The notes under the pieces are model-generated. The model saw only the letters and a list, made by a program, of their open reading frames with translations. It did no database searches and was not told the DNA's origin. A stretch of 46,010 bases of DNA, the filler included, from Jimgerdemannia flammicorona (Eukaryota), in the NCBI GenBank assembly GCA_003990765.1. It is 2 parts of 2 records of this genome, joined end to end, with 100 filler letters (N's around TTAATTAATTAA, not from the genome) between each part and the next. Parts side by side here need not be neighbours in the genome. Positions count along the whole stretch, not along the records: positions 1 to 22,960 come from RBNJ01001178.1; 1 more part is not named here. One strand, written 5' to 3'. Each line of letters opens with the position of its first letter. Within the stretch, counting starts at the first letter, position 1. The position numbers and the translations under genes were made by a program. Shown here in pieces: positions 283 through 41,842 of this stretch.

Positions 283-1530
283 TGTAAGTTCAAGTGTCTG
301 TACAAATAGTTATACAAGTTTAGGATATCAGTAGAATTTTGGTGATATAGAAAAAAAAATATCAGAAGAATTCTGAGTTATATAAAATCAGAATGCCAGA
401 AGAATAACAGTTACATAGGAAAAGGATGCTGATAGAATTTGATGTTACTAAGAACTTAAAGTAGAAAGTTCAGAACTATAAAGGCTTCATCTTTATCACT
501 ATTATTAAGGCCAGAGGTTGAAGACAGGATATCTTTAAAGGAGATGAGGTCTGTAAATGTTTTATCTATCTCATTACATATATCACACAGGATGATACAT
601 ATCATCACTGATGATATCATTACATTCAATAGTAGTGGGGGCTCTCCAATCTATGATATTCTCTTCCACAAAATAAAGAACAAATGTGGGGTCCTAGAGA
701 GGTCTAATCTGAATACTGGGGCCTTGGAATGCTGAGATCAATCTCTGTATAAATTGATCTGGGTTGTTCTGGAGGATGAGATACCAGAAGTCCTCTACTT
801 CATTACTATTGAGGGTGATAATAGACTGAGCCTCTGTGGCCACTATGGCCTCCAGTATATTAGTATAATAAGCTGACAGTTTCTTGAAGTCTGATATTCT
901 AATATATTCCAAGTTGGGGATCAATCATGATATATACCAGAAGATCTAATAAATCTTCTTTGCTATTCTTATTTTATATATCTATAGAGGTGACATCTTG
1001 AATCTTCTGGAGACTGGTCTGAGGGAATTTCTGGCAGAGGAGGTTTCTTATTTCATACTCCTACCATATCTAGAGATATTTGGTAGTAATGGTGATCCTT
1101 GTTTCTATTTCACAGTAATAGAGAATATAATGATAGAGGTCATCAGTACTCAGGTTGAGGCTAGGAGTCCTTCTTGTGCAGGTCCCCATGGCTCTTCTGA
1201 TGTCTTAAAATATTCTTTCTTAGACTGAGAGGCCTTAGTGATTCCTGGACCTTGAGGTTTGGCAAGCAGTAAGTATTTTGTTTATAGTAAGTCTTTGGAA
1301 CTATTTCTGTAAGCTTTGTTTGAATTGCTGCTATTATGGTTTCTTGATTCTTCTTTTATATTTCTTGAGATATCTGTCTTATAGTTATAATAACTTATGG
1401 TTGGTTATCATTGCTCATCTTGTAGCCTAGATAAGTCATACCATATGATCTTCTTATACTCCAATCTGGTGACTTATAAAGAAAGGCTGTCTTCTATACT
1501 AATATCATCATTCTGAGGTCACTATTATAA
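283..1530 (-). mobile_element. Degenerate LTR-retrotransposon relic, probably a long LTR containing an accessory ORF
   Basis: Terminus TGTAAG at 283, like the element D LTR; internal degenerate ORF homologous to the accessory family. Right boundary uncertain, no TSD found. Confidence 0.5.
580..1340 (-). pseudogene. Accessory-family ORF relic (HTH-like core)
   Basis: Manual translation: DIRRAMG..PSLNLSTDDLYHYILYY..EYEIRNLLCQ..SLQKIQDVTSID/KIRIAKKIY*IF..LIPNLEYIRISDFKKLS..FWYLILQNNPDQF. One frameshift near 980; stops compatible with C>T. Confidence 0.7.
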
Positions 1531-2857: not shown

Positions 2858-3556
2858 CTAGATATTCAAGATTTCCCATATATCATTCCGATCGATACAA
2901 TTGGGCGCCTCCAGCAACAATACCTCGCAATACTGTTTGGCGAGGTCGCCCTCTTGTTTGTTGTCTTTGAGCAGAGAGAACGGAGGGTCCGTCTCGTTGG
3001 GCTTCTTGCGTACATGGATGGACTCGATCGTTGTATTATGCGACGCGAGGTAGTGCTCGTCGGTGATCCTGTGGCGCAGCTTGAAGCGGTCCTTCGTGGT
3101 CAAGTATGACTTGGCGTTGAGGTCGATGTTGGCACCAGTATCGCTGGAGTCATCGTCACAAGGTAGTATCATCCACTCGTTCTTTTCGTTCGGCGACCCG
3201 GTCGTGAAGCAGCGGAGAGAGACCTCGCGCGCCGTCTTGGTCACGGGCGCGTCCTGTGTATGGCTACCGTGCAGGTAGAGCTTGTTGCTCGCGCCCTTCG
3301 CATACACCGGCTGGATGAAGACTATGTCGCCGAAGCGGATGTACGGGCCCTGGTCATCGCTGGACGGCGATTTGACGAACGTCCATACCAAGCTTTCGTT
3401 ATAGGCGGGATTCCCGAGGGGACATGTTGTTACAACAATACCGGTGTAGCCCTTCTGCGAACCATAGTAGAACTTCTTCCAACCCAAATATTTGTGGGTG
3501 CTGGCGTTCCGGAGGATCAGGCTCGAGCTAGTGGTTACCAGATCCATGCCGAGAGT
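2858..3556 (-). CDS. Host protein with MIR (beta-trefoil) repeats, 3' exon
   Basis: MIR-like motifs IRFGDIVFIQP..KLYLHGSH..APVT..REVS..NEW and DRFKLRHRITDEHYLASH; CpG-rich, stop-free frame. Probable intron 3557-3618 (GTACAG..CTGAC..CCGCAG). True 5' end not established. Confidence 0.75.
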   Translation of the reverse strand, partial: TLGMDLVTTSSSLILRNASTHKYLGWKKFYYGSQKGYTGIVVTTCPLGNPAYNESLVWTFVKSPSSDDQGPYIRFGDIVFIQPVYAKGASNKLYLHGSHTQDAPVTKTAREVSLRCFTTGSPNEKNEWMILPCDDDSSDTGANIDLNAKSYLTTKDRFKLRHRITDEHYLASHNTTIESIHVRKKPNETDPPFSLLKDNKQEGDLAKQYCEVLLLEAPNCIDRNDIWEILNI

Positions 3557-4009
3557 CTGCGGAGGGTAGATTGGAGATGACTGCTTTTTTTTTATCTGCG
3601 TCAGATGTTTGACTGTACCCAGCCACTTCATACTGAATGGCAAATCATTTTTTGTTCCAGTACCACAGTCTGGTTCATAAGCCAAACAAGTTGAAGGTTT
3701 TCTGAGAACAACAATAGCAAGTAATTATTTTTAAGCCCACTTCCAAATAAATTATTCAAGAGATTGCTAATTTATATCTTTAAAATATTATATTATATTT
3801 TTATTACTAAATAATTATATTTATATTTAAAATATTTTTATATAGATTTTATTTAATATTATTTAAAAAACAAATTAATATTCTAAATCAATTTATTAAA
3901 AAAAACATTTAAATAAAATAAATATAATTAGAGATATAATTAAAAATATTATAAAATTACAATTTAAAAAATTCTTAAAAAATAAAATAATAAAAATATA
4001 AGGTTTTAT

Positions 4010-4058: not shown

Positions 4059-4336
4059 TGTAATAGTTCTAGTTTCTTTAAGAGGAAGCAGCTAAATCTG
4101 AAAGTTCTGATTAGTCTAAAGTAGTTTAAAGAGATACTTAAAGGTTTAAGTGTTCTTAAAGGATTTCTGAGAGAAAATATTCTGAGCTTTATTCAGACAG
4201 AGAACAAGAATATTTATACATGATCTGAAAGAAAGATCCAGAAGGATCTTGGAAAGAAAGAGAAATACCAAGAAATAGGTTTTTGGCAAAGCTGACTAAT
4301 ACTATTCTACAATATTCTAAAAGGTTCTATGACTAG

Positions 4337-4812
4337 TGTAACATAGCGGATGCTTACTCTTGAAAGTATGTCAGATTTCTGTATCTTGAAAACTTGACTG
4401 TTCTGACTCTCGCAGAGTCTCTTGAAGTGGCAGGGGAGGGTGGGTGAGTTTGAAGTGTATCTGCCCGCAGGCTTACTAGTTCCTTTACTATCTCTTTACT
4501 TTGAACTCTTTCAATATGAGGTTTATTCACTCAAAGATACTGAGTTATTTATACAAGTTTGCTAGCTATGCGAAGGTGGCTAAGTAATAAATGAGTCATT
4601 TGGACTTTGTCAAAACATTTGGACAATGTCTAAATGCTATACTAAATCGAGGTATTCGATTTGGATAATGTCCAAAATTTAGACAATGTCTAAGAATTTA
4701 GACAATGTTGAAATCGAGGACTGCTAACTATAATGCTATACTACTTTGGGAATGGGTGCGATCAAGTGTCTATTCCCTATTTCCTTCTTTCAAATCTGGC
4801 TGTACCGTCACA
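4337..4812 (-). repeat. 3' LTR of element B
   Basis: TGTAAC..GTCACA, near-identical to 10589-11064. Confidence 0.95.
4545..4712 (-). promoter_or_regulatory. B LTR promoter: TATA box, ATGAGTCAT site and five palindromic boxes
   Basis: TATAAATA on minus at ~4545-4553; ATGAGTCAT at 4591-4599; TT(G/A)GAC-AAT-GTC(C/T)AA-type boxes at 4600, 4619, 4661, 4679 and 4698; also present in the 5' LTR. Confidence 0.6.
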
Positions 4813-4849
4813 ACTTCCTCCTGAATGGATGGTCTCGTCCCTGAGGCAT

Positions 4850-5311
4850 CTATTCAAACTCCCAGGCTTCAACTGTCTGTATGGTCTTGTACTGTGCGAT
4901 TTGCTGCATGACTGTTTCCCAATGATGTCTTCTTACTTTCTCAAAGTCGGTAGGGGTTACTTCTCTCAGGTAGTCTATTGCTGCTTCATCTTCTCGGAAT
5001 AACTTGTGGATCCTTTTGGCAATAGTGATCTGTGAGTGGGAGAGTTGACACTCTGCAATCCAGTCCTCCTTGGTCTTTGCTGGATCCTGATTGAGCACCT
5101 GTCCAAGCTTGAAGTACTCTTGGAATTCTGTGCAGTACTGATAGGCTCTAAAGTGTGAGATCCAAGAGAGATGAGTCTGCACAATACTCTGAATATCCTC
5201 ATAGTATAGCTCTATGGTCGGAGGCTCGGTGGTGTGCCATTGTCTTTCGATGGCTCTTTGGGCAGCACTAGTGATCTTGAGTGCCATCACAGTACTTTTG
5301 TTACTGGCCAT
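4850..5311 (-). CDS. Element B ORF3: intact 153-aa accessory protein, putative HTH-like
   Basis: Open ORF between the integrase end and the PPT; its ATG (5311) overlaps the last codons of pol (stop 5301-5303); TATAAAAG at 5390-5397; motif YFKLGQVL..KEDWIAECQLSHSQITIAKRIHKLF..AIDYL. Confidence 0.8.
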   Translation of the reverse strand: MASNKSTVMALKITSAAQRAIERQWHTTEPPTIELYYEDIQSIVQTHLSWISHFRAYQYCTEFQEYFKLGQVLNQDPAKTKEDWIAECQLSHSQITIAKRIHKLFREDEAAIDYLREVTPTDFEKVRRHHWETVMQQIAQYKTIQTVEAWEFE

Positions 5312-6493
5312 GATATTTCTTGAGTTGGTTTCGGTGAATGGTGGTGGGGATTATTGTGCCTGAGGGTTTTCATAGCCAAAAGGTGGTCCCTTTTATATCT
5401 TGCACAAGGTAAGGTCCTTCCCACTTGGGCTCCAGTTTTCATGACCATGAAGCTTCAACCATATTCCAATACACCAGGACTTTGTCTCCTATCTTGATGA
5501 TCTCTAAGGATTTGTGGGTCTTTTCCGCATTCCTCTATTGTAGTGTCTGCGCCTTCGTTATGTAATCCTCAGCCTTCTTCCTGATTTGGTGTAGTCTCCG
5601 TATTTCCATGTCCACATATTTCTATACAGCATCTCCATTAGATAACAAGGTTCCCTGAGAACATTCTTCTCCGAACAGCATTTCTCGAGGGGTAAAGTGG
5701 GTGCTTTGTGATCGGATATCCCGGAGAGCAGATAATGCTATTGGCAGATAGTGATCCCAGTTCTCATAGTTATCACAGATCTTGGCGATAACATTCTTGA
5801 GGGTTTTGTTGGTTCTTTATACTTATCCGTTTCCTTGAGGGTGATAGGCTGTGGTCTGAATGTGCTGGATCTTGTACTTCTTGTAGAGAACTTCGAAGAA
5901 CTGGTTCACGAATTCGGTTCCTCTATCTGTAGTTACTTGTGTTGGGGTCTTGAACCAGCAGATGATTTCCTTGTGGAAGAAATCGGCGATTGACTGTGCA
6001 TTGGCTTCCTTGAGAGGTCCTGCTTCTATCCACTTTATAAAAAGGTCTATGATGACAATGATGTATCGGTTGCCAGTCAAAGTCAAGAGTAGGGGGCTGA
6101 TTACATCCATTGCAATGTGGGCGAATGGTACTGGTTCTATGTGTACTGATCCTGGGGCTTGATTCATTGGTCTTGTTTCTGTTTCTGGCATTTGTCACAG
6201 GTCTTGATGAATTGTCTGATATCTTCCTCCATCCCTGGCCACCATATTGTTCTCCTTGCCTTGTCATATGTATTCGTTCCTCCTAGATGGCCAAGTTCGT
6301 GTACTGATTTCATTACTTGCTCCTTCTTGTATTCTGGTATGACCAGTAGTTTTCCTTTCTTCAGTATTTCTCCGTCAGTTTCGAATTGTTTCCATGTTCT
6401 ATTAATAATCATTTGTGTCCATTCTTCCAGATGTTGGAGCATCTTTTGCTGTCCCAGGTATGTGATAATTCTGTAGTAGAGCTCCTTATTCAT
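5301..6493 (-). pseudogene. Element B integrase (HHCC, rve core, GPY/F; no chromodomain)
   Basis: HELGHLGG..CDKC, IAMD, TDRGTEF, TTAYHPQGNG, KWEGPYLV; frameshifts and stops. Confidence 0.9.
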
Positions 6494-6519
6494 GATTTAT
6501 TTGTTGGTTGGAGGTGGTT

Positions 6520-7900
6520 GGAGGTGTCTGTGAGAGAGCATCTGCATTGGAATTTGTTCTTCCAGGGCGGTGCATGATGGTTACATCATAGGCTTGTAAC
6601 TTCATTATCTATCTGGCATAGATTCCCTTAGGTTGTCCGGTTGTCAGTAGTCAGGTGAGAGCTGAGTGGTCTGTCTGGATGGTGAAGTGTCTTCCAGCCA
6701 GATAGTAGTGGAACTTTTCCATAGCCCAGATGACTGCAAGGTATTCCAACTTGTAGAACTCATATTCTTTTTCAGCCCCTCGAGTTCTGCGACTAAGATA
6801 TGCAATAATATACTCTTTTTTGTCTTCTTTTTGAGCCAGGACTGCTCCTAGTCCCTGTGCGCTTGCATCCATCTGAAGGATAAATTCTTGGGTCCAATTG
6901 GATCATCTGAGGATGGGTGCCTGAGTTAGTCTGACCTTGAGTTCATCAAATGCTTTTTGTTGTCTGCCAGTCCACTGGAACTTGGTATCCTTCTTGTTGA
7001 GTTCGTAGATTGGGCCTGCGATGTTGGAGAATCCTCTAATGAATCTGCAATAGTAGGAGGCAAGTCCCATGAAGGCTTGGGCTTCTGTGACAGTAGTGGG
7101 CCTTGGGTATGCTGCTACTGCTTGTATTTTGAGGGGGTCCGTGTGTGTTCCATCTCGATTGATGATATGGCCAAGATAGGAGATCTCGATTTCTGCAAAC
7201 TTGCACTTCTTGGGTTTGATATAAAGGCCATGTTGTCTTAGTCTCTCTATTATCTGCTATATGTGCTGCAGATGTTCCTTGGCTGTCTTGCTGTAGATGA
7301 TTACATCATCAACATAGACCATCATCTATCTTCCCATGTCATAGCAGAAGATTTTGTTCATTATTCGCTGAAAGCTTGCTGGTGCATTGCACATTCTAAA
7401 TGGCATTCATAGGTAGATGTAGGTTCCGTCTGGGGTGATGAAGGCTGACTTTTCACTTGCCACTTCTGTGAGTCCGATTTGGTGGAATCCTGAGTATAAG
7501 TCCAAGGTGCTGTAGTACTGTGCTTTGTCTCCCAGTATTATAAGGATGTCACTGATGAGCAGCAGTGGTTGGCGATCCTTCTTAGTGACTGCATTGAGCT
7601 TTCTGTAGTCAACACAGAGCCTTGAGGCAAATTCTCCAGGTTTGCTTCCTTTTTTTGGGGCTAGTACAACTGGTGAACACCAGGGGCTGCTGGCTTCTTT
7701 GATGATACCGGCTTCTTCCATCTGCTTGATTTCTTCTCTGAGCCATTCTCTGTAGGCTGGCAGGACAGGTCTTGCCTTCTGGTAAATTGGTTCGGTGTCT
7801 TCAGTATCTACCTCATGATAGTAGTGTGGAGTCTTTCCCTTGATATCCTTGAAATCCATGGCAAGGACATCCTTGAATTTGTGGAGTATTTCCTTGAGTT
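6520..7900 (-). pseudogene. Element B reverse transcriptase and RNase H
   Basis: SSPWCSPVVLAPKK, RLCVDYRKLN, LDLYSGFHQI, YVDD (~7305-7316), DASAQGLGAVLAQ, QTDHSAL. Confidence 0.92.
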
Positions 7901-7999
7901 CTTCCTTGAGTGGGAATTTGTCTCCAATGGTGTAACTGTGCTTGCTCATGTTTTCCTCCTTCTTATGCTTGAGTTCAGTGATCTTGGTGCTGGTGAATA

Positions 8000-8425
8000 C
8001 TTCTCTTCCTGTGGATCCGAATCCTTTCTTTCCTCTTTTCATTTCTTCCAGATTCTTGACTTCTATGATCTTTGGCTGTATGATTGGGAAGATCAACATC
8101 TGTGCCAATCGGTCCTTCTTCTTGACTGGGAATGGAATTGTAGGGTTGTGGTTCCTAGCAATGAGTAGAATTTCTCCAGTATAGTCTGAATCAATGACTC
8201 CTCCTTCAATTGTGATTTTGCTTCTAGCCAGGCTACTTCTTGTCTTGAGAATCCTGACATGATCCTTTGGGATGGTCATCTCTAGTCCAGTTGCGAGTAG
8301 GGTGGTTGTCTGGGGTTCAAGTACAGTTTCTTCTACTGTAGCGATGTCCATTCCGGCTGCATTTTCTGACTTGTATTCTGGCAAGACTGCATCAGGGTAG
8401 ATCTTTCGAATCTTGACCTTGATTT
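8000..8425 (-). CDS. Element B dUTPase domain (between PR and RT)
   Basis: All five trimeric dUTPase motifs: AAGMDI, RSSLA, GVIDSDYTG, RLAQM, RGKKGFGSTG; in frame with RT. Confidence 0.92.
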
Positions 8426-8555
8426 CTTCTTCATCATCACTGTCCTCTAGGAGGGCTGGTGGTTCATCATCTTCCTCTTTCTCTTCTTCCCTGATCTGTT
8501 TTTCGAGAGCTTTCTGGCTTCTTTCCTGGTAGATCTTCCTGGTTCTGATGGTGCA

Positions 8556-9320
8556 CTAGTAGCAATCGTTGACATGCTCCATACAGTACATCTTGATTCC
8601 ATGAGGACAGACTCCTTGTGGGGCATAGCCTTCAGTGATCTTCTTGCACCATTCTTCTTCACTCATCCATCCAACTTTCTTCTTCTTTGGGGTAGTCACC
8701 ATATAAGCTTCCTCTTGCTCGCTCTCTTCTTCCTCCATATCGGGCAGGACTCCTTTGTTGACATTGATGGGAATTCGTATCTTCTGTCCCCGGTAGGTGA
8801 TTTGCATCTTCTGGGCATTGAGATTGATTACCGCCTTGGCTTTGTGAAGCCATTGATTGCCAATGAGGATGTCATAGTTGGTGGCATTGGTTACAATTAC
8901 ATCTACTGGGATTGTTGCTCCTCCGATCTTGATAGGAACATCTTGGATCTTTTCCAGAGGTGTGGCTCTTGTGCCATCGGCTGTGACGAATACTAGCTTG
9001 GTTGCTTTTTCCACATCCCAACCTAGGTGGTCTGCTGCTTTCTTACTGAGAAGACATCCTCTTACTCCTGTATCAATGATGGCCTCAAAGACTCGATCCT
9101 CAATTTGGTATGTTGCATAAGCAGAGGTTTTGCGATTGTCCTCACTTTCTTCTCCTGAGTCCTCTTGAACATTATTGGCCTCGGTTATCTTCCATCCTTG
9201 TTCCTTGGTTGTTTTGGCAAGTCTAAACCTCATTTGCTGTCTGAATGTTGGGATTTCTGCGAGCTGACCAAAGGTTGCATTGACCTTTTGTTGACTGAGA
9301 TCCTTGAAGATATCATGAAG
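8556..9320 (-). pseudogene. Element B aspartic protease region
   Basis: AIIDTG catalytic motif and YDILIGNQWL. Confidence 0.88.
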
Positions 9321-9616
9321 GTCTTGGTCTTGCGAAGCTTCTTTTCTTTTTCTTCTTCACTGGCTGGAGTGGTTCCTCAGATGATATCTTGAACTGCTTG
9401 CTCCAGCTTGATATCTTGGTCCATCTCTTCAGCTTGGCTTTCTGTGTCAGTTTCCATCTGCTTTTCCACTGGGTTCTTCTTGGGTCTTCCTGGTGGTCTC
9501 TTATAGGGTTCTTTGTGAACATCCTTCTTGGTGGTCTGAGCAGGATAGGCCTCCCATTCTTCTTCGTCAGATTCTCCGATTTCTTCAAAGGTGATTGTAT
9601 TGGCCTGCTCCTTATT

Positions 9617-10474
9617 TCATGTGGTATTGCTTGATTGAGCCTTGCGTTTGGTTTCACTCATACATTCATAGGAGTAGTGGCCTTCTTCTCCACAGCTGTA
9701 GCAGGTACCTTTCTTCTTGTCTGAGGTGGTGGCAAACTTCTGAACAGGGCGGCGATCTCTTCCTCGGATTTCCTTTACCACATCTCTCAGGTGGGCAGTC
9801 ATTTCAGCAAACCTTTTGGCAAGTTCCTCCATAGGATCACTGTTCTTTTGCTGCTCGGTAGCTTTTGGCTGAGGTGTGTTTCGATTGATCATTATGGTGG
9901 GGATCACACTGGTTGCCTTGGGTGCCTTGATTCTGACTCCTGTAACTCTCTCCATTGTATGGTCTTGTGGGTGTCTGGCTATCCAGTATCGCTGAGCATA
10001 GGTGACCCTTTGTGGCAGATCCAGAATCACTAGTGATGAGCAGATGGCCATGGCTATTTCTGGATGGACTCCTTTCATGAAGGTTGCTTCAGCTACTTGA
10101 TCTTGGGTAGCAGCAGCATAATCTGCAAGGATTATCTGATATCGAATTCTGGTATAGAATGTGTTTGGATCCTCATGCATTCCTTGGTATGTTGTGTTGA
10201 GCTGATCTTTCAGGGCTTGCTTAATCTCATCTGTGTAATATGTGTTTCGGAGCCAGGTCTTCTGTGCTGTCAGTACAGCATCAGCATCATTTTCTGCATG
10301 GGTTGCGACTGTGAATGCTGCTCTGGCAGGGCCTCGTAGGCTGAAGGGTATGAGGGCTACTTGCTGTACTGCTGTCAGAGTCCTTACAGTGGCATACTGC
10401 TCGAAATCGTCAATGAAGGTGATGATTGATTCATCTGAGGTATATCTATGGAATACTGGCGGTCTCATATCCAT
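9617..10474 (-). CDS. Element B Gag (capsid plus CCHC knuckle)
   Basis: Retrotransposon Gag-like QGMHEDPNTFY..FMKGV; CYSCGEEGHYSYEC. The frame probably continued past the TGA at 9617. Confidence 0.88.
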   Translation of the reverse strand: MDMRPPVFHRYTSDESIITFIDDFEQYATVRTLTAVQQVALIPFSLRGPARAAFTVATHAENDADAVLTAQKTWLRNTYYTDEIKQALKDQLNTTYQGMHEDPNTFYTRIRYQIILADYAAATQDQVAEATFMKGVHPEIAMAICSSLVILDLPQRVTYAQRYWIARHPQDHTMERVTGVRIKAPKATSVIPTIMINRNTPQPKATEQQKNSDPMEELAKRFAEMTAHLRDVVKEIRGRDRRPVQKFATTSDKKKGTCYSCGEEGHYSYECMSETKRKAQSSNTT

Positions 10475-10588
10475 CTTGTCTGGGTATTGGGGCTCGGTTT
10501 GTATGGTTGTTCGGGTAGTGGTGGTTGTTCGTTATTCAGCTTGAAAGTGAGGGATTCATCTTGAATCACCAGCCAATGGGCACCAAGT

Positions 10589-11064
10589 TGTAATATAGCA
10601 GATGCTTACTCTTGAAAGTATATCAGATTTCTGTATCTTAAAAACTTGACTGTTCTGACTCTCGCAGAGTCTCTTGAAGTGGCAGGGGAGGGTGAGTGAG
10701 TTCAAAGTGTATCTGCCTGCAGGCTTACTAGTTCCTTTGCTATCTCTTTGCTTTGAACTATTTCGATCTGAGGTTTATTCACTCGAAGATACTGGGTTAT
10801 TTATACAAGTTTGCTAGCTATGCGAAGGTGGCTAAGTAATAAATGAGTCATTTGGACTTTGTTGAAACATTTGGACAATGTCTAAATGCTATACTAAATC
10901 AGGGTATTCGATTTGGATAATGTCCAAAATTTAGACAATGTCTAAGAATTTAGACAATGTTGAAATCGAGGACTGCTAACTATAATGCTATACTACTTTG
11001 GGAATGGGTGCGATCAAGTGTCTATTCCCTATTTCCTTCTTCCAAATCTGGCTGTACCGTCACA
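10589..11064 (-). repeat. 5' LTR of element B
   Basis: Direct repeat of 4337-4812, followed on minus by the PBS. Confidence 0.95.
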
Positions 11065-11569
11065 CTAGCTAAGATAAGGTACTTGGTACCAAGGAAAGAC
11101 AAAAATGTTCTAGTAGTGTCTGGGTGCCAAGAGAAGGTTTCTAAGCAAGTAGAAGGTGACAGAATATAGTAGAATGTTCAAGAAAAGACAAGAAAAGACT
11201 AACTAAAAGACACAAAAATATACTAAGACTAAATATGATAGTGAAATTGTTATATCCCTCTCTCCTTAAGAATCAATGTCCTCATTGAGTTCTTAGGTAA
11301 TACAAGACTAGATATACTTAACCAAAATTTCTCAAACTTGAATCGGCATATTGGCAGGGATTGGCCATCCTTATATAGAACAGAGAGCCTATTACCAAAC
11401 TAACCAACTGGGAGGAATTCGAACCCAGCTAGTAGCTTTATTTTGATGGACTTCTTGTTCATTAAATATTCTGCTGGTTCCAGGGTTCCAAAGTAAACTT
11501 CTGATGCATAAGACACTGGTCATTGCCATAGGTCATCAACAATCTAAGAAAGTCACTACAGAGATTAGG

Positions 11570-13688: not shown

Positions 13689-13786
13689 AGAGACAATGTG
13701 GCCAGACCTCTTTCTGGTACCATTCAGGTTACATGACCTTTGGAAGACACTTTCAACATCGTTCTTGGTGAAAAGAGACTAATAAC

Positions 13787-15812: not shown

Positions 15813-15845
15813 AGACTGATTGACAACAAAACATATTTCATCATT

Positions 15846-19502: not shown

Positions 19503-19613
19503 TGGGTAGGAATGATGTATATTTATTCATAGACTGGTAATAAAGGTGGAGTCCAAGTGACTATAAAAAACAAAAAAAAAAAAAAAAAAAAAAAAAAAGA
19601 GACAATGTGGCCA

Positions 19614-20830: not shown

Positions 20831-20849
20831 TCGATTTTCACTAAGACTT

Positions 20850-21275: not shown

Positions 21276-21339
21276 TGACTAGTGGTGGGATTGATGGGTA
21301 TATCCTTGGACAACACAGTGACTGGTCTTGAGGGTTCAC

Positions 21340-22290: not shown

Positions 22291-22340
22291 ATATGAGGTT
22301 TTTTAATTAGGTAAGATATAATGACACTGATGCTATCAAG

Positions 22341-24283: not shown

Positions 24284-26347
24284 TGTAAGAGGGTTGCTTT
24301 TTAGGGTAACCATTATGTAGTTCTGGAAGGGTTTTCTGGAAGTTCTGGATATTCTGGAAGACTGTTTTCTTATGGTCAAGATCAATTTCATATAGAGTAT
24401 GTCCTCTATGCTTATTGATTTCAAGATCGAGTTGACGTCTCAACCAAAGTCCTTTTTTGGACTAGTTCTGGATGTTCAGGATTTTCTATATTTCAGGAAG
24501 TTTAAGAAACTAAGACCAGCTTAGTTGAATTGGCATATCACTGCAAACAATACCCAATTAGGAAATTTCATGACGGGGTTAGGAGTGGGACCTAACAGAG
24601 AGTGGATTTACTTAAGAGTAGTTTGTGGGTTATTAAATAAGTTTATTCGCTATTCATAATATTGCTATACTAGGAGTATTTGTATAAAGGGATATTGTGG
24701 GGAAGTGCTCAGGAGTTGTGTTTGAATTGTTCAGGTCTGAGATTCTGAGGTCTGGGAGAGGGGGTATTTATACTAGTGAGGGCTATCTGGGCTATGCTGA
24801 ATATGGATGTAGTACTAAGTGCCTTGCTGAGTTGGAATATAGTCACATAGTACAAGTGTAATCTGATATGTCAAGAGATTGTCTGACTGCTGAGTCAGTT
24901 CACAGTTACGTCATATAAGGCTAATCTAACTATACTATGACTGCTAAGTTATTTATAGGTTTAGACACTGTCTGGGTAGTCTTCAATGACATCACCATTG
25001 ATGATATCATCTCTGATGAAGTAGTCATCTAGGAAAAATAGTTCACGGATTACTTCTCCTTGTTCGCTGAGGTAATAATACATTGGAACTTCATCACTAT
25101 CCCACAGGATAGCATCATCTGTCTCATATGCTGGATAAGGTATTGGTGGGCAAAAGAGTGGTGCATTGTCTTTGCTTTTATCAGATTCGCTGTCTACATA
25201 CCTTCTGTAGGTTACAGCACTATGAGTCATGGGATTGTAGTATGCTGGTGGCTGTGGTTCATATTGCTCATACTCGGGTGGTGGGGTGGTTGGTTCGATC
25301 TCGAGGGTTGTCTGAAGGTACAGGTTGTGTTCTCTGGTTTCTTCATTGTAGTTGAAGTAATCGGGGGTAAATACGGATTGGTATTCATGCTAGTGATCAT
25401 TGTCCCAGTAAGTCTCATAGGTAGTTATGAACTACTGTAAGTTCATTAGCAAAGTTGGCGGTGTGATCAGGGTTGGTAGAGATCCTTGGCTTGAGGTCAT
25501 GTCAGTATCAGAGGGATCATTGTCTTCTGCTTCATCTTCATCAAACCGGATTATATCGTAGATGTCCTTCATAGTATATCCAACTTGGAGCATTTGTAAG
25601 ATATGATCATTGGGGTGTGGGAAGGTTCTGTCTGTGGTTTCAATATATTCAAGATACTTGTAGTTGAGTTCTTGTATCATGTCATCGATTTGGCCATAGG
25701 ATAGGGTAGCAACCATTTCAGCTGTAGTAACTTGGAGGTAGGGAATAATACTGCTATATTCATAAAAGAGTTCTCGGTGTTTGCGGGTGATGAGCTTCTG
25801 GTGTTGAGACATCTGGGTAATGTCTATATTGTGGTGATGTTTGACCATGTCTTCCAGGAGGCAGCTGATCTGGTAGTAGCTTGAGATTTATCCGATTCAG
25901 TGAGCCTCGCTAAGCATGTTCAGAGCATTCCATCGGGCTTCCACAAAGTAGAGGGGTGCTAGGCTATGGATATTCATGAGGGGCAGAGGGAGTGTGGCTT
26001 GGTTGACAATGGCATTCCAAATGTCAGCGTGGATATGGGTGTAGATCTTGGTAGTCATGTTTGTGTGTTTTGGAAGTTGTGGTTGTTGTTTGTTTTGGTT
26101 CTCTGTTTTGATGCATCTCAATGCTCGGTATATATATATTTGGTCCTGATTGGTAAGATTCTGTTTGTGTGAATCTTATGTTCTGTGACTTTGTATTGAC
26201 TCAGCTTTGTATGCTGTGACTTCAGTTTGACTCAACTTTGTGATCAAACAGATGATTTCCAGATTTGTTCAGGGGTCGCGTGTGATTTCAGTGGCTTGTT
26301 CAGAGGGTGACGTGTAATTTCGGTGGCTTAGAGGTTGTGTGCTTACA
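24284..26347 (-). repeat. 3' LTR of element D
   Basis: TGTAAG..CTTACA; colinear with 32715-34778 at offset 8431. Confidence 0.95.
24961..26058 (-). pseudogene. LTR-encoded ~365-aa accessory protein, copy 1
   Basis: Track ORFs 25897-26121, 25432-25848 and 24961-25230 share one frame; stops are C>T/G>A-type and several are sense codons in the other LTR; TATA at ~26129-26140. Confidence 0.8.
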
Positions 26348-26774: not shown

Positions 26775-28200
26775 TTAGTTGTTCAAGGAATTGTATTCCT
26801 GAACTAAGTCAGTAGCATTCTGGAGGTTGGTCTTGGGTTCCCATATTGCATCATGGATTGGATAATCTTTCCATTTAACAAGATACTCAGGGTGGTTCTT
26901 GTGGCCACATTTGTTGAGGATTTGTTCAACTTCATACTCTTCTTGGTCATTAATAATGACAGGTGCAGGTGGTTTCATGGTTCGGTTAGGGAATAGTTCA
27001 TCATCATTCTCATTATATCGCTTGAGATATTGGACATTAAAGACTGGGTGAATCTTAATGGTATCTGGTAGCACTAATTTGTAGGAGGTTGGAGAGACTT
27101 GTGCAATGACTTCGAATGGTCCAATGAACTTGCTGTTCAGCTTTGTAGATGGTCTGTGCTTGAGGTTGTCAACTTGGTATCCTTGGATGTCTAGTAGAAC
27201 CTTTTCTCCAATATCAAAGGTTTCTTCTCAGCAGTGTTGGTTAATGTACTGTGACTGTTGTTTTTGAGCTCGTGATAAGTTCTCGATGGCAATCTGGCTT
27301 AGATTGTGCATTCAGAGTAAGAATTCTTCAACAGCTTCAACTGTAGAGGGTTCTTCAGTAGCTTGGATGAGTGTCAAAGGGGTGTTTGGGTTCTGTCCAG
27401 TATTGGCAAAGAATGGGGTCATTTCCAGGGAGGCTTGCTTACTGTTGTTATAAGCAAACTCAACTGTGGTCAGGTGTTCATGCCAATCATCTTGTCTGTA
27501 GGAAACATAGTTCCTTAGCATTTGTTCTAGAGTTCGGTTCATTCTTTCGGTTTGGCCATCAGTTTCTGGGTAAAAGACTGTGGATAGTACAAGCTTTGTT
27601 CCAAGGTGTGCATGGAGGGCTTTCCAAAAATGGCTGGTGAATTTCAGGTCTCGGTCACTAACAATGATCTTAGGAAGACCATGATAGCAGAAGATGTTAT
27701 CAAATAAGAGTGTGGCTATATCTGGTACTGTTACAGTAGTGGTAGTAGACACAAAGTGGGCTTATTTGCTGAGGTAATCCACAAAGACAACAATTGCATC
27801 TTTCCCGTTCTTGGTTCGGGGTAGCTGTACAATGAAGTCCATAGAGATTTGTTCCCAATTAGCAGATAGCACTGGGATAGGGTGGAGTAGACCAGGTTTT
27901 GCTAGTGTTGAGGACTTGTTCCATTGGCAGGCATCACAGGAAGTGATGTAGGTCTTAAGCTGATCTGCTATGCAGGGCCAATAGAAGTTTCAGGAGATAA
28001 CTTCATAGCATTTATCAAATCCTAAATGTTCAGCTGTAGGGGCATCATGATATTTGAATAGGATAGTTTTTCGGAGGTCTCGGTTGTTTGGAATATACAA
28101 TCTGTCCTTGTAGTAGATAGCATTGTCCTTGAGTTGGTATTGATTGTACTGGGTATGTTTGTCAGCATCATCACTGTTCAGGACTTCACAGAGTACTTGA
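26775..28200 (-). pseudogene. Element D integrase and chromodomain
   Basis: HDAPTAEHLG, SDRDLKFTSHFW, TDGQTERMN, EEYEVEQIL..EYLVKWKDYPIHDAIWEP. Confidence 0.93.
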
Positions 28201-30230
28201 GCTTCTTTATCATCAGCGCATACTGTGATAATTTGTTCCATGATGGAGTTTGTAACTAAGGTGAGAGTTTGGATAACTTCTTCAATAGGTGGTCTGGAGA
28301 TTGCATCAGCAACAATATTTTCCTTGCTAGGGCGGTATTGGATTTCATAATCAAAGTTGGTGAGGACTTTCATCCATCTGGCTTGCTTTCGAGAAAGGGT
28401 AGCCTGAGTCTTGATGTTGACTAATGACTTGTGGTCAGTCAATACAGTAAAGTGTGCTCCTTCTAGATATGGTCACCATTTGATCAGAGTATCTACAATG
28501 GCTAGCATTTCCTTCTCATGAATTGTATAGTTAATTTCAGTATCATTGAACTTGTGGGAATGATAGGCCACAGGGTGTCCTTCTTGTATGAGTACTGCTC
28601 CAAGAGCTAGGTTAGAGGCATCAGTAGTAACTTCATATGGTAGGGCAGGATTTGCCGCTTGAAGTACTGGAGTGGTTATCAGGGCATCTTTCAGTACTTG
28701 AAAGGTGGTATCTTATTCAGGTCTCCAAGTTACAAGATTGTTGAAGTCTTTCTCTTGTTTTATGGTCCAGGGTTGTTCTTGTTTCTTACTGTACTTGGTC
28801 ATTTGAGTGAAGGTGGTAGTGATTTTAGCAAAGTTGGCAACAAATTGCCTGTAATAGTTTGCTAATCCCAAGAATGACTGGAGGTCTTTCAGCTTCTTGG
28901 GTCTGGGCCAATCTTTGATTGTAGAGATTTTGCTGGGGTCCACTTTGATTCTATTTGGGGTGACAATGTGTCCAAGAAATTGAATTTCTTTCAGGAGAAA
29001 TTTGCACTTGCTGAGTTTTGCAAAGAGTCAGTTTTCTCGGAGTTTCAGTAGTACTAGTTCAAGGTGTTCAAGATGTTCCTCCAGGATTTTGCTGAAGACT
29101 AGGATGTCATCAATATAGACAATAACAAATTTGTCCAGGTATGGGTGCAGGATAGTATTCATCAAGGTCTGGAAGGTTGCAGGAGCATTAGTTAGGCCAA
29201 AGGACATAACGAGGAACTCGAAGTATCCATAGTGAGTTCGGAAGGCTGTCTTGTAGATGTCTTCTTCTTTCATGGCAATTTGCCAGTAACCATTTCGCAG
29301 ATCAAAAGAGCTCATGAATTGTGGGTTAGTGAGCCTATCGAATATTTCATCGATTCTTGGTAGTGGGCAACAGTTTTTGATGGTTTGTTCATTGAGGTCA
29401 TGATAATCAATGTACATTTGCAGGTCTCCTCCTTTCTTGACAACAAAGAGGACTGGTGTACCATAGGGTGATACACTGGGTCTGATGAATTCTTGTTCTA
29501 GGAGTTCATTGATTTCCTTCTTGAGTGCATCAATTTCTCTCAGAGACATGTGGTAGATTGACTTGAAGGCTGGCTTGGCATCTGGGATGGTCTTGATGGC
29601 ATGGTCTACTGCTTGTTTAGGAGGTAGGCCTTTTGGAAGCTTCTTTGGGAATATGTCTCGAAATTTCTGGAGTAGTGGTCTGATATGGCTGTCAACTTTG
29701 GAAAAGTCTTCTTCAGAGTTCTCAGGTTCTCCTTTGGATGGATGGATGGAGATGGTGAAGAGAGGGTATTTCTTGGCCAATTTCTTAAGTTGTAACTTGT
29801 TGATATGAGTAATCTTTGGTCCAGAGTCACTAGAGTTAAGTGGGTCCTTTTCACCTTGCAGTTTGAAGTTGTGGTGTCCTTTCTTGATGGTCAGAGAATG
29901 GTTTACCCAATTGATCATAGGGTTCTCTTATTTTAACCATGGAGTCCCAAGGATGATTTCATTGTCAGGAAGTGGTATGATTTGGAGGGTAATATGTACT
30001 CGGTAGTCGCTGATTCGGAAGGGTAGATTGCAGACTTCTTTGCTAATAACATGTGAGATTCCATCAGCTGTAGCAACTGCTTGAGTTTATTGTACTGGAG
30101 AGGTAAAGACCTTAAGTCTGTTGGCTGTTTCTTTATTGATGAAGTTGCCTGAGACACCACTGTCTATCATAATCTTGACAGGTGCTCAGTTGATAAAAGC
30201 TTTAAGTGTAAGCAGTTTGTCTGATCCAAT
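28200..30230 (-). pseudogene. Element D protease, RT and RNase H
   Basis: [50 protein letters not shown]. Confidence 0.93.
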
Positions 30231-30279
30231 AGTAGTGATTTCAGTTGTAGGGGCTTTCCTTCTGTTGTTTCTTCTTGTT

Positions 30280-30690
30280 TGATGAGCTAAATCCTTTGAA
30301 TCCTCAGATGGTGGGCAGTAGTTCAGGGACTTCCTTGACTGTCAGGGTTGACTTGATTTTTTCAAATAGGATCTGGGCTATGTAGAAACCTATGGGGATC
30401 TTGAAGGGTATCCAACTATGGTTTCAGATGAGGACAATAATTTCACCTATATAATCTTCATCAATAACTCTTCCTTCTACTGAGAGTCCTTTCAATGCTA
30501 GGCTGCTATGACAGTATATTCTTCCAACATGTCCTTCAGGAATTTGGATACTGATTTCTGTATAGACTTGTTTGACTTCTCAGTTGGAAACTGTAGCTTC
30601 TTCGGCTGCATACAGGTCATATCCAGCTGCTTTTTGACTTCCTTTGATTGGGGCCTTAGCAGTTTGTCTTAACTTGACAAAGTCTAGTAT
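30280..30690 (-). pseudogene. Element D dUTPase (between Gag knuckle and PR)
   Basis: Manual translation: KAAGYDLYA, GRIYCHSSLA, RVIDEDYIG, IAQI, *GFKGFSSS. Confidence 0.88.
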
Positions 30691-30699
30691 TCTGGTGGT

Positions 30700-32680
30700 C
30701 AGGTTGTTGAGGTGGTGCAGAGTGGTAACCATTGCTCATGTGGCTGTTCGGGGTTTTCGGTTGGGGCAGGCACTGGCCATATGTCCTGTCTTTCGGCAAT
30801 AGAAGCATGCTCTGCTTCTTCAAAGTTCATTCCTTTCGCCTTCAGTAAGTTTCTTGAAGGTACTTGGCTAGGTGGGTTCATGATTTCTGGGTGTCCAAGA
30901 GGTAGATATGGAGGGAGCTCAGGATGCTTCATGCTTGGGTTCTTCTTTCTTGGTCCAAGTCTTTTCCTTGCTATTGAATTGTCTTTGGGGCAGAATTGGT
31001 CCAGCTGTTAGGATTCGCTTGACCATGGTCTTGATTCTTACCAGGCACTATTGTTGGTAATCACAACCAACTGGGTGGCCTTGTTCTTGGATTTTTCTAG
31101 TAAGCCATTCAGGCAGTGCATCAAATAAATAGTCTGCTCTTGTACCATTTCGTGCTTCATCATTGGCAATGTATCCTAGGCCAACAGTGTTCAGGAGTGA
31201 CTCAAGTTTTGTACAGAAGGTTTCGAATTCTTCTTTACCATGTACATCAAATTTGAGGTTGTGGAGTTTTACTCGAGATTCAGCAATCATGGTTTCACTG
31301 TAGTATTGAGCAATCATGAGTTGTTTGAGTCCAGGGGCTGCAGGATGGGCTCCATATCCTGGGGCATTGTTTGCTGCATTCTGAGCAACTACTGCAGGTC
31401 GGGTAACCTATGTGAGGGGTTTTTCAGGAAGGGTTCACCACCATTCTTTGGCAGGTCCTTGGAAGAATGTAACAACTTGGCGGACATAGGCTGTAGTGGT
31501 AGCAAAGAGTTGTTCCAGAGTGTAGTCTTGATTGTTTATCAGAACATGGTCAGCAACTCACTCATTGGTCCATTGATTGGCTTCAAAGTTGGTGTCAACT
31601 ACACTAATAAAGCTTTGGACTTCTTGTGCAGTACCATTGAAGGTAGGTAGGCTCAGATTTTTGGTAGGTCAGGTCTGTTCCACTAAGGCAGTAATGGTTG
31701 CTGCCATTATTGCTACCTGGGCTGTGAGGTCTAAAATCTGTTGGTTCACCATATTGTTTACTGGAGGCAGTTGGAATACTGGTAGTGGTGTTACTGGTAC
31801 TACTTGAGGTACTGGTGCAGAGTGTGATGGGGTTCTTTGAGTCTGTGTAAGTTGCTGGAGTAGTAGTTGTGGATCTGGAGTAAGGGCTTGATAGATAACT
31901 GTTTGTTACTGTGTAGGTGTATTTAGTCCTGATGGAGGTACTTCTTCTTCAGTGGTATATCCAGAATCGAATTCACTGAGATACTCCTCCTCTTCTTCGG
32001 TTTGGTCCCTGTATAATTGGGTTTGCTCAGCATCAAAGTAGATGGAATCAGTTATATATCTGATTTCAGATAGACTTAATTCAAAGTCGAGTTCAGGTTC
32101 AGTGTTGGTTTCAGATTCAGGTAGGGCTGTAGCAGGACCTGCTTCAGGTTTGGGGTCAGGTAGTTGATGAAGGGTTTCTCTTACTTCTTCTTTAAGAATA
32201 TGGCGGGCCTTGCTGTTCTGGAATTGGTAGTATAATGCAGTCTTGGTCCTGGTATGGTGAAAGTCAGTAGAGTTGAGCCACTTGGCTATAGAGGCTTGGG
32301 CTTCATGAGGAACTAAGGCTAGAAAGACTGCTACTGGTTATCCTAGGTTGCTTGGGTTTGTAGAGCTGATAAAACTCTTATTGAGAAGAGTAAAAAAGGC
32401 TTCTATAAGACCTTCTTCATCTTGACTTACTGGGTGTAGTGTAAGGAGTTCAGTGAATAGGTGTTTGCCTATTTGCTGATTTAATTGGAGTACTTCTTTT
32501 TTTGAATAAAGTTTGTCCTACTTGTTGCAGGTGTGGAGATCAAATTGTCCTTGTATGTCAGATTCAATTCTCTCCAGATTGTCAGATGGTTCAGGATAAA
32601 TTCCAGTTCAGAGGTTGGGCTTTATACTAACTTGTAGGAATTCACAGAAGGGTTTGTAGCAGGGTGAGGAAACATCTTGA
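30700..32680 (-). pseudogene. Element D Gag with long N-terminal extension
   Basis: CFYCRKTGHMASAC knuckle at ~30765-30810; capsid-like LPTFNG at ~31640; the same frame extends upstream to ~32620. Confidence 0.8.
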
Positions 32681-32714
32681 AGTGGAATTGGATTGTAAAC
32701 CGCTGCTACCAAGT

Positions 32715-34778
32715 TTTAAGAGGGTTGCTTTTTAGGGTAACTGTTACATAGTTCTGGAAGGGTTTTCTGGAAGTTCTGGATATTCTGGAAGACTGTTTTC
32801 TTATAGTCAAGATCAATTTTATATAGAGTACATCCTCTACACTTATTGATTTCAAGATTGGATTGATGTCTCAACCAAAGTCCTTTTTTAGACTAGTTCT
32901 AGATGTTCAGGATTTTTCGTATTTCAGGAAGTTCAAGAAACTAAGACCAGCTTAGTTGAATTGGTGTATTGCTGCAGACAATACCCAATTAGGAAATTTC
33001 ATGATGGGGTTAGGAGTGGGACCTAACAGGGAGCAGATTTACTTAAGAGTGGTTTGTGGGTTATTAAATAGGTTTATTCGCTATTCATAATATTGCTATA
33101 CTAGGAGTATTTGTATGAAGGGATATTGTGGGGAAGTGCTCAGGAGTTGTGTTTGAATTGTTCAGGTCTGAGATTCTGAGGTCTGGGGGAGGGGGTATTT
33201 ATACTAGTGAGGGCTATCTGGGCTATGCTGAATATGGATGTAGCACTAAGTGCCTTGCTGAGTCAGAATGCAGTCATATAGTACAAGTGTGATCTGACAT
33301 GTCAAGAGATCGTCTGACTGCTGAGTCAGTTCACAGTCATGTCGTACAAGGCTAATCTAACTATACTATGACTGCTAAGTTATTTATAGGTTTAGATACT
33401 GTCTGGGTAGTCTTCGATGACATCACCATCAATGACATTATCTCTGATGAAGTAGTCATCTAGGAAAAGTGATTCACGAATTACTTCTCCTTATTCGCTG
33501 AGGTAATAATATATTGGAACTTCATCACTGTTCCACAGGATAGCATCATCTGTCTCATATGCTGGATAAGGTGTTGGTGGGCGAAGGAGTGGTACATTGT
33601 CTTCACTTTTGTCAGATTCACTGTCTGCATACCTTCTGTAGGTTATAGCACTATGAGTTGTGGGATTGTAGTATGCTGGTGGCTGTAGTTCATGTCACTC
33701 GTACTCAGATGGTAGGGTAGTTGGTTCGATCTCGAGGGTTGTCTGAAGGTACAGGTTGTGTTCTCTGGTTTCTTCATTGTAGTTGAAGTAATCGGGGGTG
33801 AATGCAGGTTGGTATTTATACCAGTGATCATTGTCCCAGTAAGTCTCATAGGTAGTTATGAACTACTGTAAGTTCATTGGCAAAGTTGGTAGTATTATCA
33901 GGGTTGGTAGAGATCCTTGGCTTGAGGTCATGTCAGTGTCAGAGGGATCATTGTCTTCTGCTTCATCTTCATTGAACTGGATTATATCGTAGATGTCCTT
34001 CATAGCATATCTGACTTGGGGCATTTGCAGGATATAATTGTTGGGGTGTGGGAAGGTTCTGTCTGTGGTTTCAATGTATTCAAGATACTTGTGGTTGAGT
34101 TCTTGTATCATGTTGTCGATTTGGCTGTAAGACAGGGTAGTAACCATTTCGGCTATAGTAACTCAGAGGCGGGGAATAACACTGCTATACTCATAGAAGA
34201 GTTCTCGGTATTTGCAGGCAATGAGCTTCTGGTGTTGAGACATCTGGGTAATATCTGTATCATGGTGGTGTTCAACCATGTCTTCCAGGAGGCGGCCGAT
34301 CTGGTAGTAGCTTGAGATTTGTCCGATTTAGTGGGCCTCGCTAAGCATGTTCAGAGCATTCCATCAGGCTTCTACAAAGTAGAGGAGTGCTAGGCTATGG
34401 ATATTTATGAGGGGTAGAGGGGGTGTGGCTCAGTTGACAATGGCATTCCAAATGTCAGCATGGATATGGATGTAGATCTCAGTGGTCATGTTTGTGTGTT
34501 TTAGAAGTTGTAGTTGTTGTTTGTTTTGGTTCTCTGTTTTGATATGTCTTGGTGCTCAGTATATATATATTTGGTCCTGATTGGTAAGATTCCATTTGTA
34601 TGAATCTTGTATTCTGTGACTTTGTATTGACTCAGCTTTGTGTACTGTGACTTCGGTTTGACTCAGCTTCATGATCGAGCAGGTGATTTCCAGATTTGTT
34701 CAGGGGTCACGTGTGATTTCAGTGGCTTGTTCAGAGAGTGACATGTAATTTCAATGGCTTGGAGGTTGTGTGCTTACA
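32715..34778 (-). repeat. 5' LTR of element D
   Basis: Direct repeat of 24284-26347; terminal TG mutated to TT; PBS adjacent. Confidence 0.95.
33392..34489 (-). pseudogene. LTR-encoded ~365-aa accessory protein, copy 2
   Basis: Same ATG and stop positions as copy 1 at offset 8431, with a partly different set of mutational stops. Confidence 0.8.
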
Positions 34779-40582: not shown

Positions 40583-41842
40583 TGTTAACTCTATATAACT
40601 ATAACTATAAGTAGTGATATCTTTAAAATCAGGATTTTCTCATATAACTAGTATATGTCCTAATTACAGTAACACATCATATATTCTACTAGGAAGTGTG
40701 ATCAAATTAGAGTCATACTAGACAGGTGAATAAGTATAAATACCTAAGACAAGAATATACTGTAACCCTTATCTCTCTCTCTTCTCTCTAAAGAAAAGAC
40801 AAGATAAGAATATCTGCTATCTGCCACTAAACTGTCCATTATAGCCAGCCCCTCTCAAGCCAGGTTGACTGCTTCTTTGGACACATCCAGGTTGCCCTCT
40901 AAGGAAGAAACCACCACTCTGAGGCCCTTAACCTCTCCAGCCAGGACCTAGGATATTATGTCCTCAACTACTATAAAGTTATTGAAAGGGCCTATCTTGC
41001 TACTAGCTGTCTAGAAATCTAGTATAAATATAAAATCAGCCATCAACTTCTTCAATGTGCAAATGGCCTATCCACTGATCAAGTCTCAGACTGGACTAAC
41101 TTAGATAGGCATGAGCAAAGACTAGCTAAGAAGGTCTATCAAATCATGCACCATGCACTTTTTGCAATATCCAATCTCAACTATATATAACTAAAGAACT
41201 TTCAGAACCTCTCCTTTTCGGAGGTTGATGAGCTGGGTCCAAGAAGCCAACTTCTAGATTACTCTCAAGTCTACTGACTGTGAACCCTACTGGAGCTCTC
41301 TCCTGAATAACAACCCAGACCAATGGCTCTAAGATCTCTCTGACCTCTTTAAAGGACCACTCATTTAAATGGATATCCTTAGACATAAGAATCAAGAACT
41401 CAACTTGGATAGTTCTAATTATATTAGATAGAGAACCCTTACTCTAATGTATATACCAGTGCAAGAACTATTTGCAGACCTTATTGACTTCTTCATCCTA
41501 AATATCAAGCCATCAGCAACCACCCTTCTAGTCACTGAAGAAGAAGACAATAATACTGAGAAAGATTCTCCACCTTTCTCTCTCCTGGTTCTCAATTTCT
41601 GAATTAACAAGAATGTTGATTTCTAAGGAAGAAAGGATGTAATAGAGTGAACAGATGAGACATGACATATAAATGAGTGAACAGATGAGACACAACATGT
41701 GATGATGAAAGATTATATGATCTGACAATGATGTTATCAATGATTGAGTATGATATATGATATTTCAAATGATAAATATAACAAATGATATAAATAATAT
41801 GAAAAATGATATCTAGCTTATTCTTAGCAATCAGTGCTGCAG
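40583..41842 (+). mobile_element. LTR relic carrying an accessory-family ORF
   Basis: TGTTA start, TATAAATA at ~40735, then a degenerate ORF; same layout as the D LTR; truncated by the D-family LTR at 41843. Confidence 0.55.
40810..41625 (+). pseudogene. Accessory-family ORF relic (HTH-like core)
   Basis: ALNLSSQDLGYYVLNYY..YKISHQLLQ..STDQVSDWTNLDRHEQRLAKKVYQIM..AISNLNYI*LKNFQNLSFSEVDEL, then YWSSLLNNNPDQW after a frameshift; presumed ATG now ATA. Confidence 0.72.

Follow-up and report, generated by a model that had tools for sequence, protein, structure and literature searches.

A small accessory gene family last in line in two lineages of Ty3/gypsy elements in Jimgerdemannia flammicorona DNA

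Between the end of pol and the 3' LTR of a degraded Ty3/gypsy element in the Jimgerdemannia flammicorona assembly GCA_003990765.1 lies an intact frame of 153 codons, here called ORF3, which raises the question of whether it is a gene of the element or a frame left open by chance and, if it is a gene, what its product may do. The window, by which we mean the whole stretch of DNA analysed, is 46,010 nucleotides long and joins parts of two records (positions 1 to 22,960 from RBNJ01001178.1) with 100 filler letters between them; it is a nest of retroelements (Table 1). A sequence-only reading of the window had proposed that four different LTR elements (B, D and two relics) encode one protein core, and the peptides that it quoted are all present where it placed them. 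The analysis below indicates that ORF3 very probably belongs to a real accessory gene family under selection; what the protein does can be said much less firmly.

Element B is structurally complete, and ORF3 lies exactly between its pol stop and its polypurine tract, on the coding strand. The ATG (5311-5309) is 8 nt ahead of the pol stop in another frame, so that the two genes overlap, while the TAG stop codon (4852-4850) is separated from the polypurine tract by 30 nt. The two LTRs are 95.8% identical, gag has a CCHC knuckle and the integrase end of B-type pol is without a chromodomain. At least 11 in-frame stops among 1448 aligned gag-pol codons mark this copy as dead. It was inserted within the 3' LTR of element C, which it split, as seen from flanks (4059-4336 and 11064-11252) that jointly match 22341-22803; the interior of C is split by a LINE-like element. 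The B family is multi-copy in contigs from public runs (DNA-type only, runs X1-X4, mostly labelled soil metagenome), one of which (X1) yielded 1769 diverged pieces. The differences between these pieces and the window copy are mostly transitions, and at many sites the window copy has A/T where all aligned contigs have G/C, the pattern expected from C-to-T decay. An inverted piece of about 200 bp at 2386-2581 is ~70% identical to part of the B LTR.

The counterpart of ORF3 in element D is found in both LTRs. In each, the frame opens with a Met (26058 and 34489) 290 nt into the LTR, and it lies ~700 nt from the pol stop with the polypurine tract between them. Because that tract is upstream of the gene, the gene falls within U3 and would be duplicated, one copy per LTR, at each retrotransposition. 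Both frames are interrupted in the window, as is the D internal region (several stops); an intact N-terminal relative exists in P0020, a database protein of 128 aa that is ended by the edge of its 1180-bp contig and that has Arg or Gln at sites read as TGA or TAA in the window copies. The integrase end of D (26778-27227, minus strand) matches PF00385 (E=8.6e-15) and SH3_Tf2-1 (E=4.3e-18), and this C-terminal chromodomain assigns D to the chromoviruses by sequence. The target site duplications of 4 bp (CTAG) in B and 5 bp (AGCCC) in D, and the chromodomain in D where B-type pol has none, are as the sequence-only reading had described them; the contrast that it drew between the two hosts was nonetheless overstated, as both have the order protease-dUTPase-RT and their RTs are 32-34% identical. 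The position of the dUTPase, the presence of a chromovirus, decay by transitions and the soil-metagenome labels of the matching contigs are compatible with a fungal host.

The two relics are collinear with each other, at ~50% DNA identity, and share an extra C-terminal motif, W..L..NNPDQ[FW]...L...F.GP.I, that the B protein does not have; the NNPDQW part of relic 2 is in a different frame from the core. We found no remnant of pol beside either relic in the window, and self-blastn of the window returned no repeat (LTR) partner for either of them. The proposal of one core in four LTR elements is thus borne out for the core, which is common to B, D and both relics, and not for the status of the relics as LTR elements. 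Directly beyond relic 2 there is a 715-bp fragment of the D LTR (41845-42559, 3' end only), and behind this fragment a 280-bp segment (42564-42842) that is 84% identical, in inverted orientation, to positions 1-280 of the window. The latter lie downstream of relic 1 at a distance similar to that of the matching segment from relic 2.

Element C is closer to D than B is, with 47% identity to D in RT and 43% in the chromodomain. No member of the ORF3 family was found in it, only ~330 nt lying between the chromodomain and the short LTR. The two non-LTR retrotransposon copies in the window are diverged (64-70% identical) and show extreme strand asymmetry: their GC skew ranges as high as +0.50 and as low as -0.57, and their frames are rich in tryptophan and glycine. 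A further open frame (2861-3724), with repeated L-R-N/H ... Y-L motifs in AT-rich surroundings (24-26% GC nearby), may be a host gene or a gene of another element.

Table 1. Coordinates of the elements, ORF3 family members and other features of the window.
Feature	Position	Strand	Remarks
Element B, Ty3/gypsy	11064-4337	-	LTR pair, TSD (target site duplication), polypurine tract
B 3' LTR	4337..4812	-	476 bp, TG..CA ends
B 5' LTR	10589..11064	-	476 bp
B TSD	4333-4336 and 11065-11068		CTAG, 4-bp
B gag and pol	5304..10474	-	order: gag, protease, dUTPase, RT, RNase H, integrase
B pol stop TAA	5301..5303	-	integrase C-terminal end, ...KKYHGQ then stop
B ORF3	4850..5311	-	153 codons and stop, intact
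B polypurine tract	4813..4822	-	AGGAGGAAGT on minus strand, adjoins 3' LTR
Element C	4059-22803	-	D-like chromovirus, carries dUTPase
D 3' LTR	24284..26347	-	2064 bp, TG..CA ends
D 5' LTR	32715..34778	-	2064 bp
D TSD	24279-24283 and 34779-34783		AGCCC, 5-bp
D polypurine tract	26349-26361	-	borders 3' LTR
D internal region	26775..32714	-	gag, dUTPase, RT, RNase H, integrase, SH3_Tf2-1, chromodomain
D-type family member in 3' LTR U3	25432..26058	-	208 codons and stop; in-frame stops at codons 54 and 57
D-type family member in 5' LTR	33863..34489	-	208 codons and stop; four in-frame stops
Relic 1	720..1192	-	two frames, 1192-977 and 975-720; 1-base break at 976; 4 stops
Relic 2	40846..41400	+	core 40894-41241; 3 stops
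Relic C-terminal motif, relic 1	720-800	-	
Relic C-terminal motif, relic 2	~41290-41400	+	
Non-LTR retrotransposon copy	13700-19600	+	Exo_endo_phos and RT matches
Non-LTR retrotransposon copy	35000-40516	-	Exo_endo_phos and RT matches
Open frame	2861-3724	-	288 codons, no Pfam match

Whether these frames are related to one another had to be decided at the protein level. As the sequence-only reading had observed, there is no obvious DNA similarity among the four, neither by self-blastn (E<=1e-10) nor by word-7 blastn. Pairwise protein comparisons were by themselves not convincing: single-sequence tblastn of B against D over the window gave weak matches (E 0.19-0.47), and the hhalign P values were 0.039 for B and D, 0.17 for B and relic 2 and 0.01 for D and relic 2. 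Profiles were decisive. To read through the broken frames, X was substituted for every stop and a single X bridged the frame break in relic 1; MAFFT then aligned D (3 rows) and both relics over ~115 columns with one 3-residue gap. An HMM built from these rows, searched against the six frames of the window as 612 overlapping 300-aa chunks, matched the chunk with B ORF3 at E=2.9e-7 (26 bits, profile positions 6-129), and the best unrelated chunk had E>=1.5. The four full-length B-family proteins scored 27.0, 21.6, 16.9 and 14.8 bits with this HMM; none of 3000 shuffles of ORF3 reached these real scores (best 9.6 bits), and the reversed sequence scored 3.3.

Reciprocal searches gave a consistent picture. 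Outside B, the B-only profile had its best matches in relic 1 (E 0.029), D copy 2 (0.093), relic 2 (0.96) and D copy 1 (3.2), with its core matches in a common register over profile positions 64-138. The best match of the D-only profile outside D was B ORF3 (E 0.012), and the relic-only profile matched D copy 2 (E 7.4e-4) and B ORF3 (5.7e-3); for each of the three sub-profiles the top match outside its own group always fell in another of the three. A combined alignment (A3) has few short gaps across a shared region of ~120 residues. Taken together, the profile, shuffle and reciprocal results make the four-way family real, and we take B ORF3, the D frame and both relics to be homologous on this sequence evidence. 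A tblastn match of the B-type protein P0001 at 19005-19151 (E 0.069) lies in a LINE-like element and is unrelated, and a 776-aa repeat protein (P0013, E 3.8e-4) was rejected as spurious since its score came from five repeats of a low-identity match; another contig, L002, encodes a bacterial oxidoreductase and was a chance word match. Searches of large protein collections returned B-type and D-type sequences only (9, 4, 1 and 11 matches) and no further lineage, and viral contigs scanned with alignments A2 and A1 gave no match; the known carriers are two element lineages and the two relics.

Selection on ORF3 can be read from a relative of B. L001, a metagenome contig of 6479 bp, contains a gag-pol ORF of 1258 aa and, apart from it, integrase ORFs; its ORF3, likewise 153 codons long, overlaps the end of pol as in B and is followed by the same polypurine tract. 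Between the window copy of B and L001, ORF3 has a pN of 0.201 and a pS of 0.809; the corresponding values are 0.173 and 0.746 for gag, 0.153 and 0.687 for protease and 0.165 and 0.690 for dUTPase-RT, and in the integrase pieces pN is 0.065-0.090 and pS 0.50-0.53. The pS of ORF3 indicates that synonymous sites are saturated between these two elements, and, since its pN/pS is like those of gag and protease-RT, ORF3 is about equally constrained. In this comparison of two sequences the substitution pattern shows purifying selection on ORF3 between element lineages. Within the D LTR pair, where 181 of the 183 differences are transitions, the NG86 pN/pS of the ORF frame is 0.30, and control frames and the remaining LTR sequence give 0.51-0.68; this ratio is not used here as evidence, as it is based on few changes (27 synonymous, 31 non-synonymous) and the spread over codon positions (24/14/27) is not significant. 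Nor does the intactness of ORF3 in the dead B copy carry weight, as the probability of finding no stop in 153 codons at the stop density of pol is ~0.31.

The window protein shares 62-80% identity with twelve B-type sequences. Full-length frames of 153 aa are present in four of these twelve distinct sequences (P0001, P0003, P0015 and P0019), and the other eight rows of the B-type alignment (A1) are shorter, from contigs of 515-870 bp. Thirty columns of this alignment are invariant and cluster in residues 42-109. The earlier interpretation of an accessory family therefore holds to this extent, that one selected family, and not a chance frame, occupies the 3' end of at least two Ty3/gypsy lineages.

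The protein itself resembles nothing in the collections searched. Against Pfam, PHROGs and NCBIfam, 11 members searched at E<=10 gave only scattered single-member matches with E>=0.01; no helix-turn-helix family matched any of the 11 at E<=0.01, and a profile search of PDB sequences had a best E of 0.3. None of these four collections held an already described retrotransposon family, or any other family, that matched ORF3. The sequence-only reading had likened the central segment to DUF3102 (PF11300) and DUF1016_N, helical domains of bacteria and phages. By eye there is a loose similarity, in a Y-x-x-G-x-x-L followed by a short helix, a turn and a long helix with a basic patch, but hmmscan matched neither domain to any of the 11 members even at E<=10. 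The conserved core motif of the family is Y-x-[IL]-G-x-x-L ... Q-[LM]-S-x-x-Q-x-x-[IL]-A-[KR]-[KR]-x-x-x-[LI]-[FM]. It is followed by an acidic and aromatic C-terminal stretch (...VEAWEFE in B, ...RFDEDEAEDND in D and ...EVEDFWYL in relic 1), the counterpart of which in relic 2 is aromatic and hardly acidic.

AlphaFold2 gave a mean pLDDT of 57.9 with the B alignment only and of 64.6 with the combined B/D/relic alignment A3, in which residues 61-110 reach 79-87. The model is all-helical (helices at 3-27, 37-75, 81-88, 92-116, 120-125 and 128-151) and, at modest overall confidence, predicts a three-helix core. Foldseek searches of the PDB with both models, together with VIA wide, returned nothing over noise. 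In the ESM Atlas, the B and D queries had four feature families in common at 0.88-0.93 (Closter_coat, Translat_reg, DUF6192 and a cluster bearing HTH_3), and the D query alone found a cluster at 0.89 in which 58% of members carry DUF3102; the rows are mixed (0.86-0.94) and, by the tool's own calibration, are leads only. The pI lies between 4.6 and 6.8 in eight of nine sequences (8.76 in one B protein) and between 5.0 and 5.9 for the cores, an acidic-to-neutral range that is atypical of DNA-binding proteins and makes DNA binding slightly less likely. To read the protein as a helix-turn-helix, a DUF3102 domain or a transactivator is a lead only. The family as modelled would comprise small (~150-210 aa), soluble, all-helical proteins of dUTPase-bearing Ty3/gypsy elements.

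In both B and D the gene is always in the last coding position and on the coding strand. The order of pol, ORF and promoter/R/U5 appears unchanged between the two, and it would be only the plus-strand primer site that has moved. Element C, which is closer to D and is without the gene, indicates that the gene is dispensable for at least some lineages; given that C is nearer to D, either the gene was lost in C or B and D gained it separately. We infer from this arrangement that the ORF3 protein may serve its element in trans, as a regulator or an adaptor. The conserved three-helix core would bind nucleic acid or a host factor, and the acidic and aromatic C-terminal stretch would be an effector or recruitment tail. 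A message distinct from the full-length gag-pol transcript would be the source of the protein, by way of a promoter that is internal or in U3, or of reinitiation where the pol stop overlaps ORF3. As there is no family match and no significant fold match, this mechanism is drawn from pattern and position, and we judge the statement as a whole, of a selected accessory gene together with a regulatory or adaptor product acting in trans, to have somewhat less than an even chance of being right.

One specific form of this proposal takes retroviruses as its model. Retroviral genes that lie in or overlap the U3 of the 3' LTR include MMTV sag, lentiviral nef and foamy-virus tas/bel, and Tas binds DNA as a transactivator and has an acidic activation region at its C-terminus. 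Like these, the D frame is a small accessory gene downstream of pol which, lying in U3, is doubled in both LTRs; unlike them, it shows no sequence or fold relation that we could find, and the retroviral genes belong to vertebrate hosts and are expressed by splicing. By analogy, the family could encode a trans-acting regulator sited before the polypurine tract or in U3, in a Tas-like circuit of non-retroviral, probably fungal, Ty3/gypsy elements, which we consider improbable.

The same features would also be compatible with a cofactor of the particle or of integration. On this alternative, which we regard as rather unlikely, ORF3 would be a helical adaptor on the element's own Gag, integrase or cDNA complex that aids assembly, nuclear entry or target choice and not transcription, in a role comparable to that of retroviral virion-associated accessory proteins. 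A small, soluble, helical and acidic protein suits protein-protein contacts better than DNA binding, ORF3 adjoins the integrase end of pol with a stop/start overlap in B, and its constraint resembles that of gag. Set against this, no similarity to Gag, capsid or integrase-binding families was found, expression in D looks uncoupled from pol by the ~700 nt and the polypurine tract that separate it from the gene, and element C does without it.

A second alternative, by analogy with plant VANC proteins and lentiviral adaptors, is that the protein counters host defence: it would sequester a host protein, or divert it, and in this way block silencing through RNAi, DNA methylation or RIP-like mutation. 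The heavy transition mutation in the D LTRs and the A/T bias of the window B copy would fit such pressure, the C-terminal motifs, acidic and aromatic, could serve for docking, and the gene, like many accessory antagonists, is confined to some lineages and dispensable. However, nothing ties the family to any silencing pathway, no homology to known suppressors was found and the copies that carry the gene are as mutated as element C, which does not; we consider a defence role distinctly unlikely.

It is very improbable that ORF3 is instead a C-terminal extension of Pol made by frameshifting and not a free protein. Its frame does overlap the end of pol, by 8-41 nt in B and L001, but in both an in-frame stop 13 codons before the ATG leaves a window of only ~40 nt for the shift, the D frame lies past the polypurine tract, in the LTR and ~700 nt from the pol stop, and the intact family members all start with Met. 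That the frame is a non-functional hitch-hiker, open by chance or through constraint on RNA or DNA, is scarcely credible, for although its intactness in a dead copy is not significant, pN is four times below pS between lineages with saturated synonymous sites, protein motifs are kept where the DNA is unalignable, and full-length frames occur in independent contigs.

The regulatory or adaptor reading that we favour concerns a kind of gene with precedents, and the premise of the sequence-only reading that fungal Ty3/gypsy elements encode only gag and pol has published exceptions, in the 'add. ORF' of PMC2864245 and in brtn as described in PMC8365987. Novikova et al. (2010, PMC2864245) depict an 'add. 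ORF', of unknown function, in chromoviruses of fungi, which are likewise Ty3/gypsy elements and in some cases have their dUTPase placed between protease and RT. In the fungus Botrytis cinerea, Boty-like Gypsy elements also carry an additional gene whose function is unknown, brtn (Zhao et al. 2011, cited in PMC8365987), but it is antisense, whereas the family described here is on the coding strand after pol. In bdelloid rotifers, LTR retrotransposons have ORF3 genes common to diverse lineages (Rodriguez, Kenefick and Arkhipova 2017, PMC5408684). The two systems are alike in having an extra ORF downstream of pol in dUTPase-bearing Ty3/gypsy-like elements and the same type of ORF in unrelated or divergent lineages, which implies modular gain or exchange. 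The rotifer genes differ in encoding env-like glycoproteins, GDSL esterases and DEDDy exonucleases with recognisable homologues, and the window family in being a small helical protein, with no homologue detected, that in one lineage lies inside U3. We found no description of the ORF3 family in the open-access full-text literature; extra ORFs in LTR elements are a known kind of gene, while this family and its placement in U3 appear, from that search, to be undescribed.

To our knowledge, few extra genes of LTR retrotransposons are known outside animals and plants, and almost none is understood. Such genes are the raw material for retroviral accessory and regulatory genes. The present case offers one selected family in two positions, before the polypurine tract and inside U3, that are topologically equivalent but mechanistically different, and as read here it shows that a shift of the plus-strand primer site is able to place a formerly internal gene in the LTR and thereby duplicate it. 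If the Tas-like circuit is true, the U3 form would make every LTR a self-contained protein-coding unit, including solo LTRs (as the relics may be), and an LTR-borne gene could provide the factor in trans to related elements. If the protein is a dispensable adaptor only, it is still a new protein family and useful for element annotation; should it act on its own LTR as a regulator or disable silencing, it would offer a direct handle on how elements persist under heavy mutational defence.
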